The notes below the pieces were generated by a model that was not told the DNA's origin, searched no databases, and saw only the letters and a list, made by a program, of their open reading frames with translations. From Candidatus Sysuimicrobium calidum (GTDB lineage: Bacteria; Sysuimicrobiota; Sysuimicrobiia; Sysuimicrobiales; Sysuimicrobiaceae): a stretch of 64,000 nucleotides of DNA. Below, in pieces: positions 34,671 to 39,198 of this stretch (positions are counted from its first letter, which is position 1; each line of letters begins with the position of its first letter). Location of the stretch: contig JAVKHN010000004.1 in assembly GCA_031459935.1 (NCBI GenBank), positions 14,041 to 78,040 on the forward strand, read 5' to 3'. A program made the position numbers and the translations under genes.

Positions 34671-35869
34671 GAACCGAGCTCCTTCCGGACGTCCGCGGGC
34701 GGTTCGGGCCCTTCGGCGGCCGGTATGTGCCGGAGACCCTGATCCCGGCCCTTCTGGAGCTGGAAGCCGCCTACGAGGCGCTGCGACAGGATCCGGAGTT
34801 CCGGCGGGAGCTGGAGGGGCTTCTGCGGGAGTACTGTGGCCGGCCCACACCTCTGTATTTCGCCTGCAGGCTCTCGGAGCACCTGGGCGGCGCCCGCATC
34901 TACCTTAAGCGGGAGGATCTGCTGCACACAGGGGCCCACAAGATCAACAACGCCCTGGGGCAGGCCCTGCTCGCGAAGCGCATGGGCAAACATCGGGTGA
35001 TCGCGGAGACGGGCGCGGGCCAGCACGGGGTGGCCGTGGCCACCGCCGCGGCCATGCTGGGCCTCCGGTGCGAGGTGTACATGGGGCGGGAGGACGTGGA
35101 GCGCCAGGCCCTCAACGTGTACCGGATGGAGCTACTGGGAGCCCGGGTGATCCCCGTGGACAGCGGCACCCGCACCCTCAAGGACGCCATCAACGAGGCG
35201 TTGCGGGACTGGGTCACGAACGTGCGCACCACCTTTTACGTGATCGGGTCCGTGGTGGGGCCGCATCCGTACCCCCGCATGGTGCGGGACTTCCAGTCCG
35301 TGATCGGCACCGAAGCCCGGCAGCAGATCCTGGAGCGGGAGGGAAGGTTGCCGGACGCGGTGGTGGCCTGCGTGGGCGGCGGGAGCAACGCCATGGGCCT
35401 GTTCTGGGCCTTCCTCGCGGACGAATCCGTGCGGCTCGTCGGCGTGGAGGCCGGAGGGCAGGGGATCCAAAGCGGACGGCACGCGGCAAGCCTCGTGGCG
35501 GGAAGCCCCGGGGTGCTGCACGGGGCCTACACCTACGTGCTGCAGGATGAGGCCGGACAGGTGCTCGGCACGCATTCCGTCTCCGCGGGCCTGGACTATC
35601 CCGGGGTGGGCCCCGAGCACGCGTACCTCAAGGAGACGGGGCGGGCCACCTACGTGGCGGTCACGGACGAGGAGGCGCTTGAGGCCTTCCATCTCCTGGC
35701 CCGCACGGAGGGGATCCTGCCGGCCCTGGAGCCCGCCCACGCCCTCGCGTACCTGAGGCACCTCGCCCCGCAGCTGGGCAGAGACGGCGTGGTCGTGGTG
35801 GGCCTCTCAGGCCGGGGGGACAAGGACGTGGAAGTGGTGCGGCGGTACGCGCGCCATGAGCCGGTTTAG
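34667..35869 (+). CDS. trpB: Tryptophan synthase beta chain
   Basis: [34 protein letters not shown]. Confidence 0.97.
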
Positions 35870-36650
35870 AGCGCTCTTCGAGCAGCTGCGGACGGAGGGC
35901 CGGGCCGCCCTCATGCCCTTCCTCGAGGTCGGGGATCCGGACCTGCAGACCCTGGAACACCTGATTCCGGCCGTGGTGGAGATCGGGGCGGATGCCCTGG
36001 AACTCGGGGTGCCGTTTTCTGATCCCATCGCGGACGGTCCCACCATGCAGCGGGCCGCCTACCGGGCCCTGCAGCGGGGTGTGCGGCTCCAGGAGGCCCT
36101 GGAGCTCGTGCGCCGGGTGCGTCGGGTGGTGGACGTGCCCATCGCCGTGATGTCTTACGCGAACCCCCTCTACCGGTACGGGATCGAGCGGTTCGGCGCG
36201 GAGGCCCGGGAGGCGGGTGTAGACGGCATCATCGCCGCGGACATCCCCGCGGACGAGGGGGATCCCCTCGTACGGGCCGCGCGTCCGGTGGGCCTCGATA
36301 CCATCTTCCTCGTGGCGCCCACCAGCACCGAGGCGCGGCTGCGCACCGTGGCCGCGGCCACCACGGGGTTTCTGTACTGCGTCTCGGTCACCGGGGTGAC
36401 GGGGGCCCGGGAACGGCTCAGCGAGGAGGCGGAGGACCTCGTGCGCCGGGTGCGGAGGGTGACGGACCTGCCCGCGGTGGTGGGGTTCGGGATCGCCACA
36501 CCGGAGCACGCGCGCGCCGCAGCCCGGTTCAGCGACGGGGTGATCGTGGCGAGTGCCCTGTATCAGGTACTGGAGGCAGCCCGGGATCCCGTGGCGGCCG
36601 CGGTGGACTTCCTGCGCCCCTTCGCCCGGGCCCTCCGCTCAGGCCCCTGA
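35856..36650 (+). CDS. trpA: Tryptophan synthase alpha chain
   Basis: [28 protein letters not shown]. Confidence 0.96.
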
Positions 36651-37091
36651 TCCCTGCAGCCGCCAGCGCACCGAAACATCCGGGGTCGCGACCGCGACCG
36701 TGCCGTAGAGGGGTCAGCGGCGTTTGAAGGCCTCCACCAGGGCCTCCGCCTGTGCTGCGGAGACCCCGGAGAGCACGAGATCCAACTGCACCGCGTTGAA
36801 CACCGTGAGGTCCGGCCGCACGGGCGCGGAGCGGTCCACGGTCCCCGTGATGTGCGCCTCCACCCGGGGGATGGGAAAGCCGGACTCCCGGGCCAGGACC
36901 TCTACCAGCTCCACCGCGCAGGTGGCCACCCCGGCCAGGAACAGCTCCCCGGGTGTGATCTCCTCGCCGGGGCACCCGTTCTGCACAGGCCCGTCCACCA
37001 CGAGGTGGTGGTTGCGGGCGGAACAGACCACCCGACCGAAGATCCCGCTGGATCGGGCCGCGGCCTCGTAAACCCGTACCTCCTGTGCCAT
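36639..37091 (-). CDS. OsmC/Ohr family protein, probable selenoprotein (in-frame UGA at 36714-36716)
   Basis: TPGELFLAGVATC peroxidatic-Cys motif; read-through gives KRR-U-PLYGTV...* (150 aa), matching the second CP motif; SECIS-like hairpin downstream. Confidence 0.8.
36684..36699 (-). promoter_or_regulatory. Putative bacterial SECIS hairpin
   Basis: GGUCGC-GGUC-GCGACC; G-initiated apical loop begins 21 nt after the UGA. Confidence 0.7.
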
Positions 37092-37238
37092 CGCTCCCTC
37101 CTCACCGGCCGAGATGGTGGTAGTCGGGGTTGGAGTCCAGCCTAGGGCGTTCGCCCGGACGCTCCGTCGCCCTGCCCTCCAGGGTGTTCCGTTCGGCGAT
37201 CTGGGGGAGAAATCCTGGGGTGCGCGGAGCGCTTAAAG

Positions 37239-37273
37239 ACCGCGGGGGAGGCTCCTGGAGCCTCCCCCGCGGT
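37239..37273 (-). terminator. Strong hairpin, probable terminator after Mn-catalase
   Basis: Perfect 17-bp inverted repeat ACCGCGGGGGAGGCTCC/GGAGCCTCCCCCGCGGT followed by CTTTAA on the minus strand. Confidence 0.7.
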
Positions 37274-37291
37274 ACGAGGGCAAACCCCGCC

Positions 37292-38179
37292 TCAGCTGGT
37301 CGCGAGCTTCTTCGCCAGCTCCGTGATCTCCGCAGGCTCTAGACCCGGCGCGAACTCCTCCGGGAGCGGTGGCAGCACCGGCACAGGACCGCCCGGAGGC
37401 GGCCCGTCCACCACCACGAGATCTCCATCCCCCGTGGGTGCGGGGCCGCGCCAGATGCGGGCGATGTCCCGGTAGTCCTCGGGGCTGAAGCGGTACAGGG
37501 TGCGGTGCACGCCCGCCTGCTCGTACTTCCGGGCCTCCGGGAACTTCGCGTTGGGGATGTTGGGGATGGGCAGAAGCCTGGTGAGGTCCACGCCCGTGAG
37601 GGTCTCCACCGCTTTGCCGTAGGCGGTGGCGTGCACTCCGCCCCGCACCAGGAGGTATCCGATCATCTCCCGGGCCACGGGGTTGCGGGTCATCTCGTAG
37701 ACCCGGATTTTGTGCAGCCGCGCCCCGCACTCCAGGAAGAAGTTGTGCAGCAGATCCAGCACGAGGTTGCCGCTGTTGAATACGTAGTCCCCGTGCCAGA
37801 ACGCACCCATGGAACCGCCCACGAAGGCGGTCTGGGCCGTGCTGACGAAGTGGTAGGTGGAGCGCACATCCTTGCCGGGCTCGAGCGGTGCCTCCACGGG
37901 GTCCTTGGCCTGGGTGGTGCCCGTGAGCAGGAGGTTGATGGTGGCGGAGACGAGCTCGATGTGGCCCAGCTCCTCCGTGGCGATGTTCGCGATGAGGTCC
38001 CGGTAGGGCTTGAGCTGATCGTGCCCGCGGAAGTTGAAGGATTGATAGGTGTAGTTCATGAGGGTGGACATCTCCCCGAACCGGCCGCCCAGCAGGTCCT
38101 GGACCGCGGCCGCGGCGTTGGGATCCGGCTCCTTGGGAGCCGGCAGCTCGATCTGCAACCGATCGATCCGCAGATACAC
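37292..38179 (-). CDS. Manganese catalase family protein
   Basis: LGGRFGEMST, IATEELGHIE, FLECGAR, LLVRGGVH. Confidence 0.92.
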   Translation of the reverse strand: MYLRIDRLQIELPAPKEPDPNAAAAVQDLLGGRFGEMSTLMNYTYQSFNFRGHDQLKPYRDLIANIATEELGHIELVSATINLLLTGTTQAKDPVEAPLEPGKDVRSTYHFVSTAQTAFVGGSMGAFWHGDYVFNSGNLVLDLLHNFFLECGARLHKIRVYEMTRNPVAREMIGYLLVRGGVHATAYGKAVETLTGVDLTRLLPIPNIPNAKFPEARKYEQAGVHRTLYRFSPEDYRDIARIWRGPAPTGDGDLVVVDGPPPGGPVPVLPPLPEEFAPGLEPAEITELAKKLATS

Positions 38180-38304
38180 CCTAATCCCTCCTTTCCGGAT
38201 GGGGTCCGGTCTTCAGTGTGCGGAAGGGGTCTGCGGGGGCGAAGGCCGCGGTCGATCCAAAGAGTGCCCGAACCGACCACCCCCCCTCGTCCGGGAGGGC
38301 CCGC

Positions 38305-39198
38305 ATGCGGCATCCTAGGGGTGTGCAGGTGGCGCTGCTGGACCGGACCCCCATCTCCCCGCCCTACCCGCCTCCGGGAGCCCTCGAGGCGTGGGGATGG
38401 GTGTGGGACCAGGTGCAGATCGGTTTTCTGGAGGGGCGAGCGTATGCCGGGGAACCCGGGTGGGGCCTGGAGCGCCGTACGGTTCCCAACGCGCTTGCGG
38501 TGCTGGTCCTGGAGGGCAGGAGCGTGTGGCGGATCGGGGATCGATCCGTGGCTGCAGGCCCCGGAGACCTCCTGCTCATCCCGGAAGGCGTTCCGCACGC
38601 GGCGGAGCCTTCCCCCGCGCCCGTCCACCTGCTCTCCGTTCACTTCACCGCCCGCGTGCTCGGGACGCAGTGTCTGCTCCTGGTGCTGGGGTTTCCGGTG
38701 GTACTCAAGGACAGGGCGTCCGCGGACGTGATTCAGGAGCTCGTGCGGTTGACCACGCACGAGCCGCCCGGGTGGCGGCAGCGGGGCCGGGCGCTCATCA
38801 CGGAGCTCCTGCTGCGGACGGTACACGAGCGGCCCGCGGACTTCCGGCCCATGCAGGTGCAGGAGGTACGCGCGCTCCGGCTGCTGTGCCACGTGTTCCA
38901 GCTCCTCGAGGGCACGGACGGCGGGATGCGCGTGGCGGAGCTGGCCCGGGCCGCGGCCTGCTCGCCCACCCACCTGCGTCGGCTCTTCCGGACGGCCCTG
39001 GGGATGTCCCCGAGCCGGTATCTCCTGGAACGCCGGTTGCAGCGGGCCGCGGAGCTCCTGCGCGGTACGGACCACACGGTGCAGCAGGTGGCGGAGCGGT
39101 GCGGGTTCGAAAGCCTCTCCCACTTCCATCGGCACTTCAAGGCCCGGTACGGGTGCACGCCGCTGGCATTCCGGACTCGGCTTACGCAGCCGCCGTGA
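38305..39198 (+). CDS. AraC family transcriptional regulator (cupin + HTH)
   Basis: PGDLLLIPEGVPH, ELARAAACSPTHLRRLF, VAERCGFESLSHFHRHFK; start uncertain. Confidence 0.9.
   Translation: MRHPRGVQVALLDRTPISPPYPPPGALEAWGWVWDQVQIGFLEGRAYAGEPGWGLERRTVPNALAVLVLEGRSVWRIGDRSVAAGPGDLLLIPEGVPHAAEPSPAPVHLLSVHFTARVLGTQCLLLVLGFPVVLKDRASADVIQELVRLTTHEPPGWRQRGRALITELLLRTVHERPADFRPMQVQEVRALRLLCHVFQLLEGTDGGMRVAELARAAACSPTHLRRLFRTALGMSPSRYLLERRLQRAAELLRGTDHTVQQVAERCGFESLSHFHRHFKARYGCTPLAFRTRLTQPP

Follow-up and report, generated by a model that had tools for sequence, protein, structure and literature searches.

Does the reading frame on the minus strand at 36714..37091 end where its TGA codon says it ends, or is that codon read as selenocysteine (Sec, U) within a longer protein of the OsmC/Ohr fold? 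The frame lies in a stretch of 64,000 nucleotides of Candidatus Sysuimicrobium calidum DNA (contig JAVKHN010000004.1 of assembly GCA_031459935.1, positions 14,041 to 78,040), which is called the window below and whose numbering is used throughout. Our answer is that positions 36639-37091 of the minus strand very probably represent a real and intact selenoprotein gene, in which the UGA at codon 126 is a predicted Sec codon; we put the probability of this at roughly 0.9. The evidence that carries it is comparative, and consists of the conservation of the UGA and of the frame beyond it, of a covarying hairpin just downstream, and of the presence in the same genome of the genes for Sec insertion.

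The gene and its extension past the UGA

With translation table 11 the frame comprises 125 codons and closes with the residues ...EAFKRR, followed by the TGA at 36714-36716. An earlier inspection of the sequence alone (the original prediction) had proposed that the frame stopping at AFKRR is a truncated OsmC-family gene and that reading through the UGA would yield a protein of 150 residues, and translation of 36639-37091 with TGA as U gave exactly that, the second TGA at 36639-36641 being the true stop. The full gene of 150 codons starts at the ATG at 37089-37091, with a ribosome-binding site GGAGG, as read from the sequence, at 37097..37101 on the same strand, 5 nt upstream of the ATG. The two cysteines that had been pointed out, a first catalytic one in an ATC motif and an extra one in NGCPG, are present as Cys58 (36918..36920, minus strand), which is the first conserved cysteine and occupies the Ohr/OsmC peroxidatic position by alignment, and as Cys40 (36972..36974, minus strand), a third cysteine in an NGCPGE loop that is specific to the subfamily according to the comparison of loci and alignment A2. 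The Pfam OsmC domain (PF02566) scores 44 bits, with a cut-off of 27.5, over residues 42-136 of the read-through protein, and the match therefore runs across the TGA at codon 126.

Conservation of the UGA across genomes

Sixty-one genomes, that of the window and those of 60 relatives, were searched in six frames and yielded 23 matches in 21 genomes. Exactly one internal TGA is found in 21 of these matches, and the other two are weak (E 3e-5 and 8e-4) and are to other paralogues. Within the phylum of the window, 24 of 94 genomes contain a match at E <= 1e-10, with a single TGA in 23; the 24th covers residues 4-93 only and ends before the Sec site. A further 80 loci came from a scan of a species-representative genome collection with the Cys-form homologue P0012, and since they were seeded by peptides of one query they are not an unbiased sample. 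Their titles name Acidobacteriota (Angelobacter, Terriglobales, Blastocatellaceae, Thermoanaerobaculia), Gemmatimonadota, Burkholderiales, Chloroflexia, Opitutales, Binatia, Gaiellaceae and Chlamydiota, and the codon at the site is TGA in 79 and TGT in one (L125). When all loci are pooled, TGA stands at the site in 102 of 103 and TGT in that single locus, where it should be added that the pairs L026/L052 and L044/L062 among the 103 are apparently the same records twice.

The original prediction had looked to homologues for pairing of Cys with UGA and for conservation past the UGA, and both were found: Cys occupies the site in 99 of 100 full-length database forms, and the frame 3' of the UGA is open for 18-27 residues in each of the 103 loci, with P127 and L128 invariant in this tail. 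The other invariant residues of these loci are G19, R26, H28, D33, E49 and C58, and near-invariant are R20 (101/103) and C40 (86/103). Cys40 is invariant in the 52-row alignment A2, and it is missing from the more distant Sec forms of a sister family, f4, which read ..SSGPSE.. there.

A covarying hairpin downstream of the UGA

A hairpin that we consider to be the selenocysteine insertion sequence (SECIS) starts 14 nt after the TGA, at 36684..36699 of the minus strand, and consists of a 7-bp stem (36693-36699 with 36684-36690) and a GU loop (36691-36692), the whole encoding TVAVAT. Numbered from the U of the UGA, G18-G24 pair with C27-C33 around the loop G25-U26, and the GU lies 22-23 nt after the UGA. 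The hairpin had been described as GGUCGC-GGUC-GCGACC with a G-led loop 21 nt downstream; it is present as such at 36684-36699, and the first G of the GGUC loop is 21 nt past the A of the UGA. SelB in other bacteria recognises an exposed GpU.

In an alignment of 99 Sec-form sequences, 97 of them distinct, pairing is complete for all seven pairs (679 of 679 cells) and the GU of the loop is invariant. Three stem pairs never vary and one varies on one side (UA 95, UG 2), whereas two-sided changes occur at three of the seven, namely 30-45 (GC 86, CG 6, AU 5), 31-44 (GC 92, AU 3, GU 2) and the loop-closing pair 36-39 (GC 72, AU 24, CG 1). Neither the covariation score nor the number of double changes was reached in any of 500 column shuffles, and in a control in which the partners were slid by 1-3 columns 21-67% of the cells paired. 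Some of the compensations change both amino acids (for instance ATC...ATC, giving V->I plus T->I), and the adjacent P, L, Y and G codons are free to vary at their wobble positions. We regard this comparative evidence, and not the energy of a single sequence, as decisive for a hairpin beyond chance; as far as sequence comparison can speak, it shows selection on both the UGA and the RNA structure.

The hairpin-encoded hexapeptide, [TS][VI]AVA[TIV], occurs in every one of the 102 Sec forms and was kept in 13 of 100 full-length non-Sec forms from the databases. The seven pairs together with the GU could be encoded by the hexapeptide of just 16 of those 100, and because so few could do so the hairpin is tied to the UGA rather than to the protein fold. 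Because it lies inside the coding sequence, all Sec forms are held to the peptide TVAVAT, and the hairpin is a clear case of an RNA signal that constrains the protein sequence in which it sits.

Selenocysteine machinery

The genome from which the window was taken (2.14 Mb, 73 contigs, 94% complete) contains all four genes that the original prediction said should be sought, selA, selB, selC and selD. selA (560 bits, cut-off 268), selB (353 bits, cut-off 242) and the gene for tRNA-Sec (selC, 80.7 bits, anticodon TCA according to ARAGORN) lie side by side on contig 19, and selD was found at 374 bits with one in-frame TGA. The latter is itself a selenoprotein gene (G000:C45:18898-19821, locus L009), with the TGA at locus position 1531 in the context ..VDCAGUASK... 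Across the phylum, selA is above the cut-off in 76 of 94 genomes, and of the 23 genomes that carry the window gene in its TGA form 22 have selA; the TGA-form genome without a selA match (G028) is 91% complete and divided over about 320 contigs. Two genomes with selA and no match for the window gene, G023 and G076, enter these phylum tallies.

Fold of the protein and position of the Sec residue

The AlphaFold2 model of the read-through protein, made with 52 sequences, has a mean predicted local distance difference test score (pLDDT) of 86 and a predicted template modelling score of 0.77. The chain is helical at 112-125, interrupted at 126, helical again at 127-135 and forms a strand at 138-145, with a pLDDT of 95-98 over the last 40 residues; Cys40 falls in the region that is modelled with the least confidence (pLDDT about 61). 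A Foldseek comparison with the PDB gave OsmC/Ohr structures as the top matches (2egt, 2onf, 1ukk, 1lql, 4mh4 and 9jxc; E 6e-9 to 4e-8, template modelling score 0.63-0.81, 140-152 aligned columns). On the basis of the model and of these alignments, the 25 residues that are dropped in the truncated annotation form part of the fold, and the expectation that reading through the UGA would restore an OsmC/Ohr protein was borne out, both by the complete fold of the model and by the PF02566 match that crosses the TGA.

The nearest solved proteins by sequence are of the Ohr type: 9jxc (1.3e-5), 1usp (8e-5) and 1n2f (1e-4). In the alignment to 9jxc and 1usp, Cys58 coincides with the first Ohr cysteine, which we take to be the peroxidatic one, and U126-P127 coincide with the C-P of the VCPY motif, the cysteine of which we take to be the resolving one. 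Codon 126 (36714..36716, minus strand) hence aligns with the second conserved cysteine of solved Ohr proteins, in agreement with the resolving-Cys position that had been proposed for it. The conserved R20 and E49 sit, in the phmmer alignment, 1-3 columns off the catalytic Arg and Glu of Ohr. Ohr proteins have two conserved cysteines, one of them in VCPY, and form an intramolecular disulfide after peroxide reduction, with a catalytic Arg and Glu beside the peroxidatic Cys and with recycling by lipoylated proteins or AhpD (PMC8945050).

Sec and Cys forms in protein databases

A search of a collection of 5.8 billion proteins gave 1333 homologues, and the best 120 of these 1333 were sorted by form. 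Twenty of the 120 are 125-143 residues long and end exactly before the Sec site (...FK[RG]R), 99 are full length with Cys (R-C-P-L-Y-G), and one is full length with Arg. The closest homologues, at 89-92% identity, are among the 20 short entries, which carry names such as 'hypothetical protein' or 'uncharacterized OsmC-like protein'. It had been foreseen that annotation pipelines would truncate this gene, and the closest public entries are indeed 125 residues long and named hypothetical or OsmC-like. Public annotation would in this way systematically shorten a family that is present in many lineages of soil, freshwater and hot springs, and the selenoproteome counts of those lineages would therefore be too low.

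We also built a tree with FastTree from only those residues that precede the Sec site, with 223 rows (122 Sec, 100 Cys and 1 Arg), where the 122 Sec rows include the 20 truncated database entries, counted as Sec. The Sec forms group into clades on this tree: the state changes number at least 16, and label shuffles averaged 74, with 63 as the lowest value (200 shuffles). Such a number of natural switches between Sec and Cys offers matched pairs for testing what selenium adds at the second-Cys position.

Two individual entries deserve mention. P0002, a Cys form with 84% identity to the window protein, falls on the tree within the Sec forms that are closest to the window, and its hexapeptide is TVAAAT, in which the valine encoded by the loop has been lost. 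P0113 has Arg at the Sec/Cys column and retains TVAVAT; its Arg could be the result of a TGA-to-CGA change.

Gene neighbourhood

The selenoprotein gene is preceded by a gene for a manganese catalase (37292..38179, minus strand; PF05067, E 2.5e-78), beyond which lies a divergent gene for an AraC-family regulator (38218..39198, plus strand; Pfam HTH_18, HTH_AraC and AraC_binding). On the other side, trpA is convergent (35856..36650, plus strand; Trp_syntA, E 1.4e-85), and overlaps the selenoprotein gene at the 3' end of the latter by its final 12 nt. The catalase and AraC neighbours named in the original prediction were both confirmed by Pfam, but the peroxide-defence module that it built on them is doubtful: in a scan of 140 stop-to-stop open reading frames from 20 other loci against Pfam, the manganese catalase was adjacent in only one of the 20 (L023, from a congener).

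In that congener (G001) a gene for an AhpD-like protein of the CMD family, with a CHYC motif, lies between the catalase and the Sec-OsmC gene (L023:1964-2428, minus strand). The corresponding gap in the window is a 200-nt spacer (37092-37291), and an AhpD-like partner elsewhere was rejected, the sole match in the window's genome having an E-value of 2.4e-4 and two internal stops. In three of five loci of the sister family f4 (L028, L031 and L036) the Sec-OsmC gene stands beside a gene for a pyridoxal-phosphate-dependent enzyme of Cys/Met metabolism (PF01053), which we take as lineage synteny.

A long, GC-rich and perfect inverted repeat (CCGCGGGGGAGGCTCC..GGAGCCTCCCCCGCGG) is found just past the stop codon of the catalase gene, at about 37238-37274, and suggests that the catalase and selenoprotein genes are separate transcription units. 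It has no T-run and was therefore not called by the terminator scan; the scan of 36400-37400 for promoter and terminator consensus sequences gave no site of either kind.

Weighing the explanations

The most likely course of events, starting from the known bacterial mechanism of Sec insertion, would be the following. SelB with Sec-tRNA(Sec) would bind the mRNA hairpin 14 nt past the UGA, with its 7-bp stem and exposed GU, and codon 126 would thereby be decoded as selenocysteine instead of as a stop; we infer both the binding and the insertion from that mechanism. The product would be a protein of 150 residues with the OsmC/Ohr fold, by homology probably a homodimeric hydroperoxide reductase. 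Cys58, at the peroxidatic position, would attack the peroxide, and Sec126, located where the second helix kinks and where the resolving Cys is found in Ohr, would condense with the resulting sulfenic acid to a selenenylsulfide, which could then be reduced by a dithiol donor of the lipoyl type or by one that is AhpD-like.

A number of observations weigh against this explanation. The folding energy of the 45 nt after the UGA (-13.7 kcal/mol) is ordinary for a sequence so rich in GC, with z = 0.13 and 98 of 200 shuffles reaching the same value, and an Rfam scan of 36500-37300 (E up to 10) gave 13 weak matches far below the gathering scores with no SECIS family among them, a result that is uninformative. 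The hairpin lacks the bulged U of the E. coli fdhF element. The hairpin after the UGA of selD, at a similar distance, has in its single minimum-free-energy fold a GGA loop and not GU, so that GU may not be universal in this genome. The protein does not reach the curated cut-off of the Ohr model TIGR03561 (30.9 bits, cut-off 88.85) or of the OsmC model TIGR03562 (13.2 bits, cut-off 85.8); by these NCBIfam cut-offs it is best classified as a separate subfamily, and a peroxidase activity is therefore read from fold and residues only. A conserved operon was rejected, as the gene neighbours are not kept across the 20 other loci, and a reductant partner, the counterpart of the AhpD-like gene of the congener, was sought in the window's genome and none was found. 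We have also counted the incompleteness of that genome on this side.

Among the alternatives, the one that survives best leaves the UGA as a Sec codon and exchanges the roles of the two residues, such that Sec126 attacks the peroxide and the selenenic acid formed is resolved by Cys58 or Cys40. We consider it possible, though less likely than not. The redox residues of Ohr-type active sites are close together, a third conserved cysteine, Cys40, is at hand in 86 of 103 loci, and the entries concerned in the published catalogues place Sec usually at the catalytic nucleophile (TxxU in Prx; U at the first Cys in OsmC-like proteins). What speaks for the original roles is the alignment to Ohr, in which Sec126 falls on the VCPY Cys and Cys58 on the first Cys, and the fact that the residues around the peroxidatic site, Cys58, E49 and R20, are kept in 101-103 of the 103 loci.

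A true stop at the TGA would give a product of 125 residues, with the hairpin serving mRNA stability or acting as a signal for the convergent trpA. This 125-residue form is what public annotation calls, and the hairpin energy is not exceptional, but we judge a true stop very unlikely: the 18-27 codons past the TGA are open and conserved in all 103 loci, the residues that they encode make up half a helix and the last strand (pLDDT 95-98), the Cys forms are full length, and the hairpin is kept although trpA is no neighbour in most loci. There is likewise little room for a reading of the UGA as another amino acid (e.g. Trp, Gly or Cys), by a variant code or near-cognate read-through. Read-through of UGA does occur in some lineages, but here TGA also terminates the window gene itself, the full Sec machinery is present in the genome, homologues have Cys at the site, and the covarying hairpin is tied to the TGA forms. 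A pseudogene, a nonsense mutation or a sequencing error, for which nothing speaks beyond the stop codon itself, is already refuted by the comparative data, in which the same TGA recurs in 102 of 103 loci from many phyla and the Sec forms make up clades on the tree of residues before the site.

Taking Sec126 again as the residue that reacts with the sulfenic acid of Cys58, we tentatively propose, at slightly less than even odds, that the gene is one of a widespread family, represented in at least 8 named bacterial groups, that has Sec at the resolving and not at the peroxidatic position and that cycles via a Cys-Sec selenenylsulfide. If this is true, selenium would speed up resolution and recycling or guard against over-oxidation, and would not serve the attack on the peroxide. 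Furthermore, a SECIS within the coding sequence would dictate TVAVAT, a constraint that would be relaxed whenever Cys replaces Sec, and the 16 or more switches between Sec and Cys would make the family a natural experiment on why cells use selenium.

Comparison with known systems

An OsmC-like selenoprotein was reported from three Sargasso Sea sequences with a UxxT motif, assigned to COG1765 (Zhang, Fomenko and Gladyshev 2005, PMC1088965), and the family is listed unchanged, as UxxT, in the relevant passages of two reviews (PMC9312934, PMC13188914). It resembles the window protein in several ways: each has the OsmC fold (PF02566), each gene contains one in-frame UGA that is closely followed by a SECIS, Sec is paired with Cys at a conserved redox position, and both were predicted computationally only. 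In the sequences as given in PMC1088965, however, U stands at position 40 of 137 residues, where the first conserved cysteine belongs (..GIGFuLLTQ..), and the second site is Cys (..KQGCFAE..), whereas the window protein has the reverse, Cys58 first and U126 second; moreover, the published family is assigned to COG1765/YhfA, whereas the window protein is nearest to Ohr. With the published Sec at the other cysteine, the window gene is a distinct variant and not simply another member. The statement of the original prediction that OsmC-like selenoproteins are a known class therefore holds for the class, but not for the window gene as a plain member of it, its Sec being at the opposite cysteine. 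The NCBIfam model for such proteins (NF041052, 'OsmC-related (seleno)protein') gives the window protein 29 bits with a cut-off of 95, and thus does not reach the window family.

In relatives from the same order there is another OsmC-like gene, different from that of the window, which also contains one in-frame TGA (L041, G029:C1:203543-203920; further loci are G035:C1:2956559-2956906 and G053:C76:11603-11947). In L041, U is at the first Cys (..LGTUTAVTL..) and the second site is Cys (..EHCPVH..), and NF041052 gives 62 bits with the same cut-off of 95. With U at the first Cys in L041 and at the second in the window protein, both Sec arrangements would occur in the lineage.

In the literature, in a search that left the supplements of PMC13188914 and PMC2398784 outside its scope, we found no description of an OsmC/Ohr protein that has Sec at its second cysteine, and in the passage of the 2026 review concerned (PMC13188914) the word 'resolving' is applied to MsrA only. 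Sec at a resolving-cysteine position would accordingly be unusual, the catalogue entries at hand listing the first Cys for OsmC-like proteins and the peroxidatic Cys for Prx. PrxU (TxxU), for instance, resembles the window protein in being an enzyme of the thiol-peroxidase type with a natural Sec/Cys pair, but its fold is unrelated and it has Sec in place of the peroxidatic residue (catalogue table of PMC13188914), whereas that of the window protein is at the resolving position.

The SECIS of E. coli fdhF shares with the hairpin described here its location directly after the UGA within the coding sequence and the exposure of a G and a U at the tip. The conserved positions of the E. coli element are U17, G23 and U24 according to PMC8659212, and the GU of the window hairpin is at 25-26, counted from the U of the UGA. 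In contrast to the fdhF type, the loop of the window hairpin consists of GU alone, the pair that closes it covaries (G-C, A-U or C-G), and the sequence of its stem is almost fixed across phyla, since it also codes for TVAVAT.

Another of the closest known systems is Ohr itself, the lipoyl-dependent two-cysteine peroxidase (PDB 1n2f, 1usp, 1zb8 and 9jxc). The window protein has the same fold, and a Glu before the first Cys and an N-terminal G-R are conserved among its loci, the Glu and Arg being aligned 1-3 columns away from those of Ohr; it differs from Ohr in having a predicted Sec in place of the second Cys and a conserved extra cysteine, Cys40, in its NGCPGE loop.

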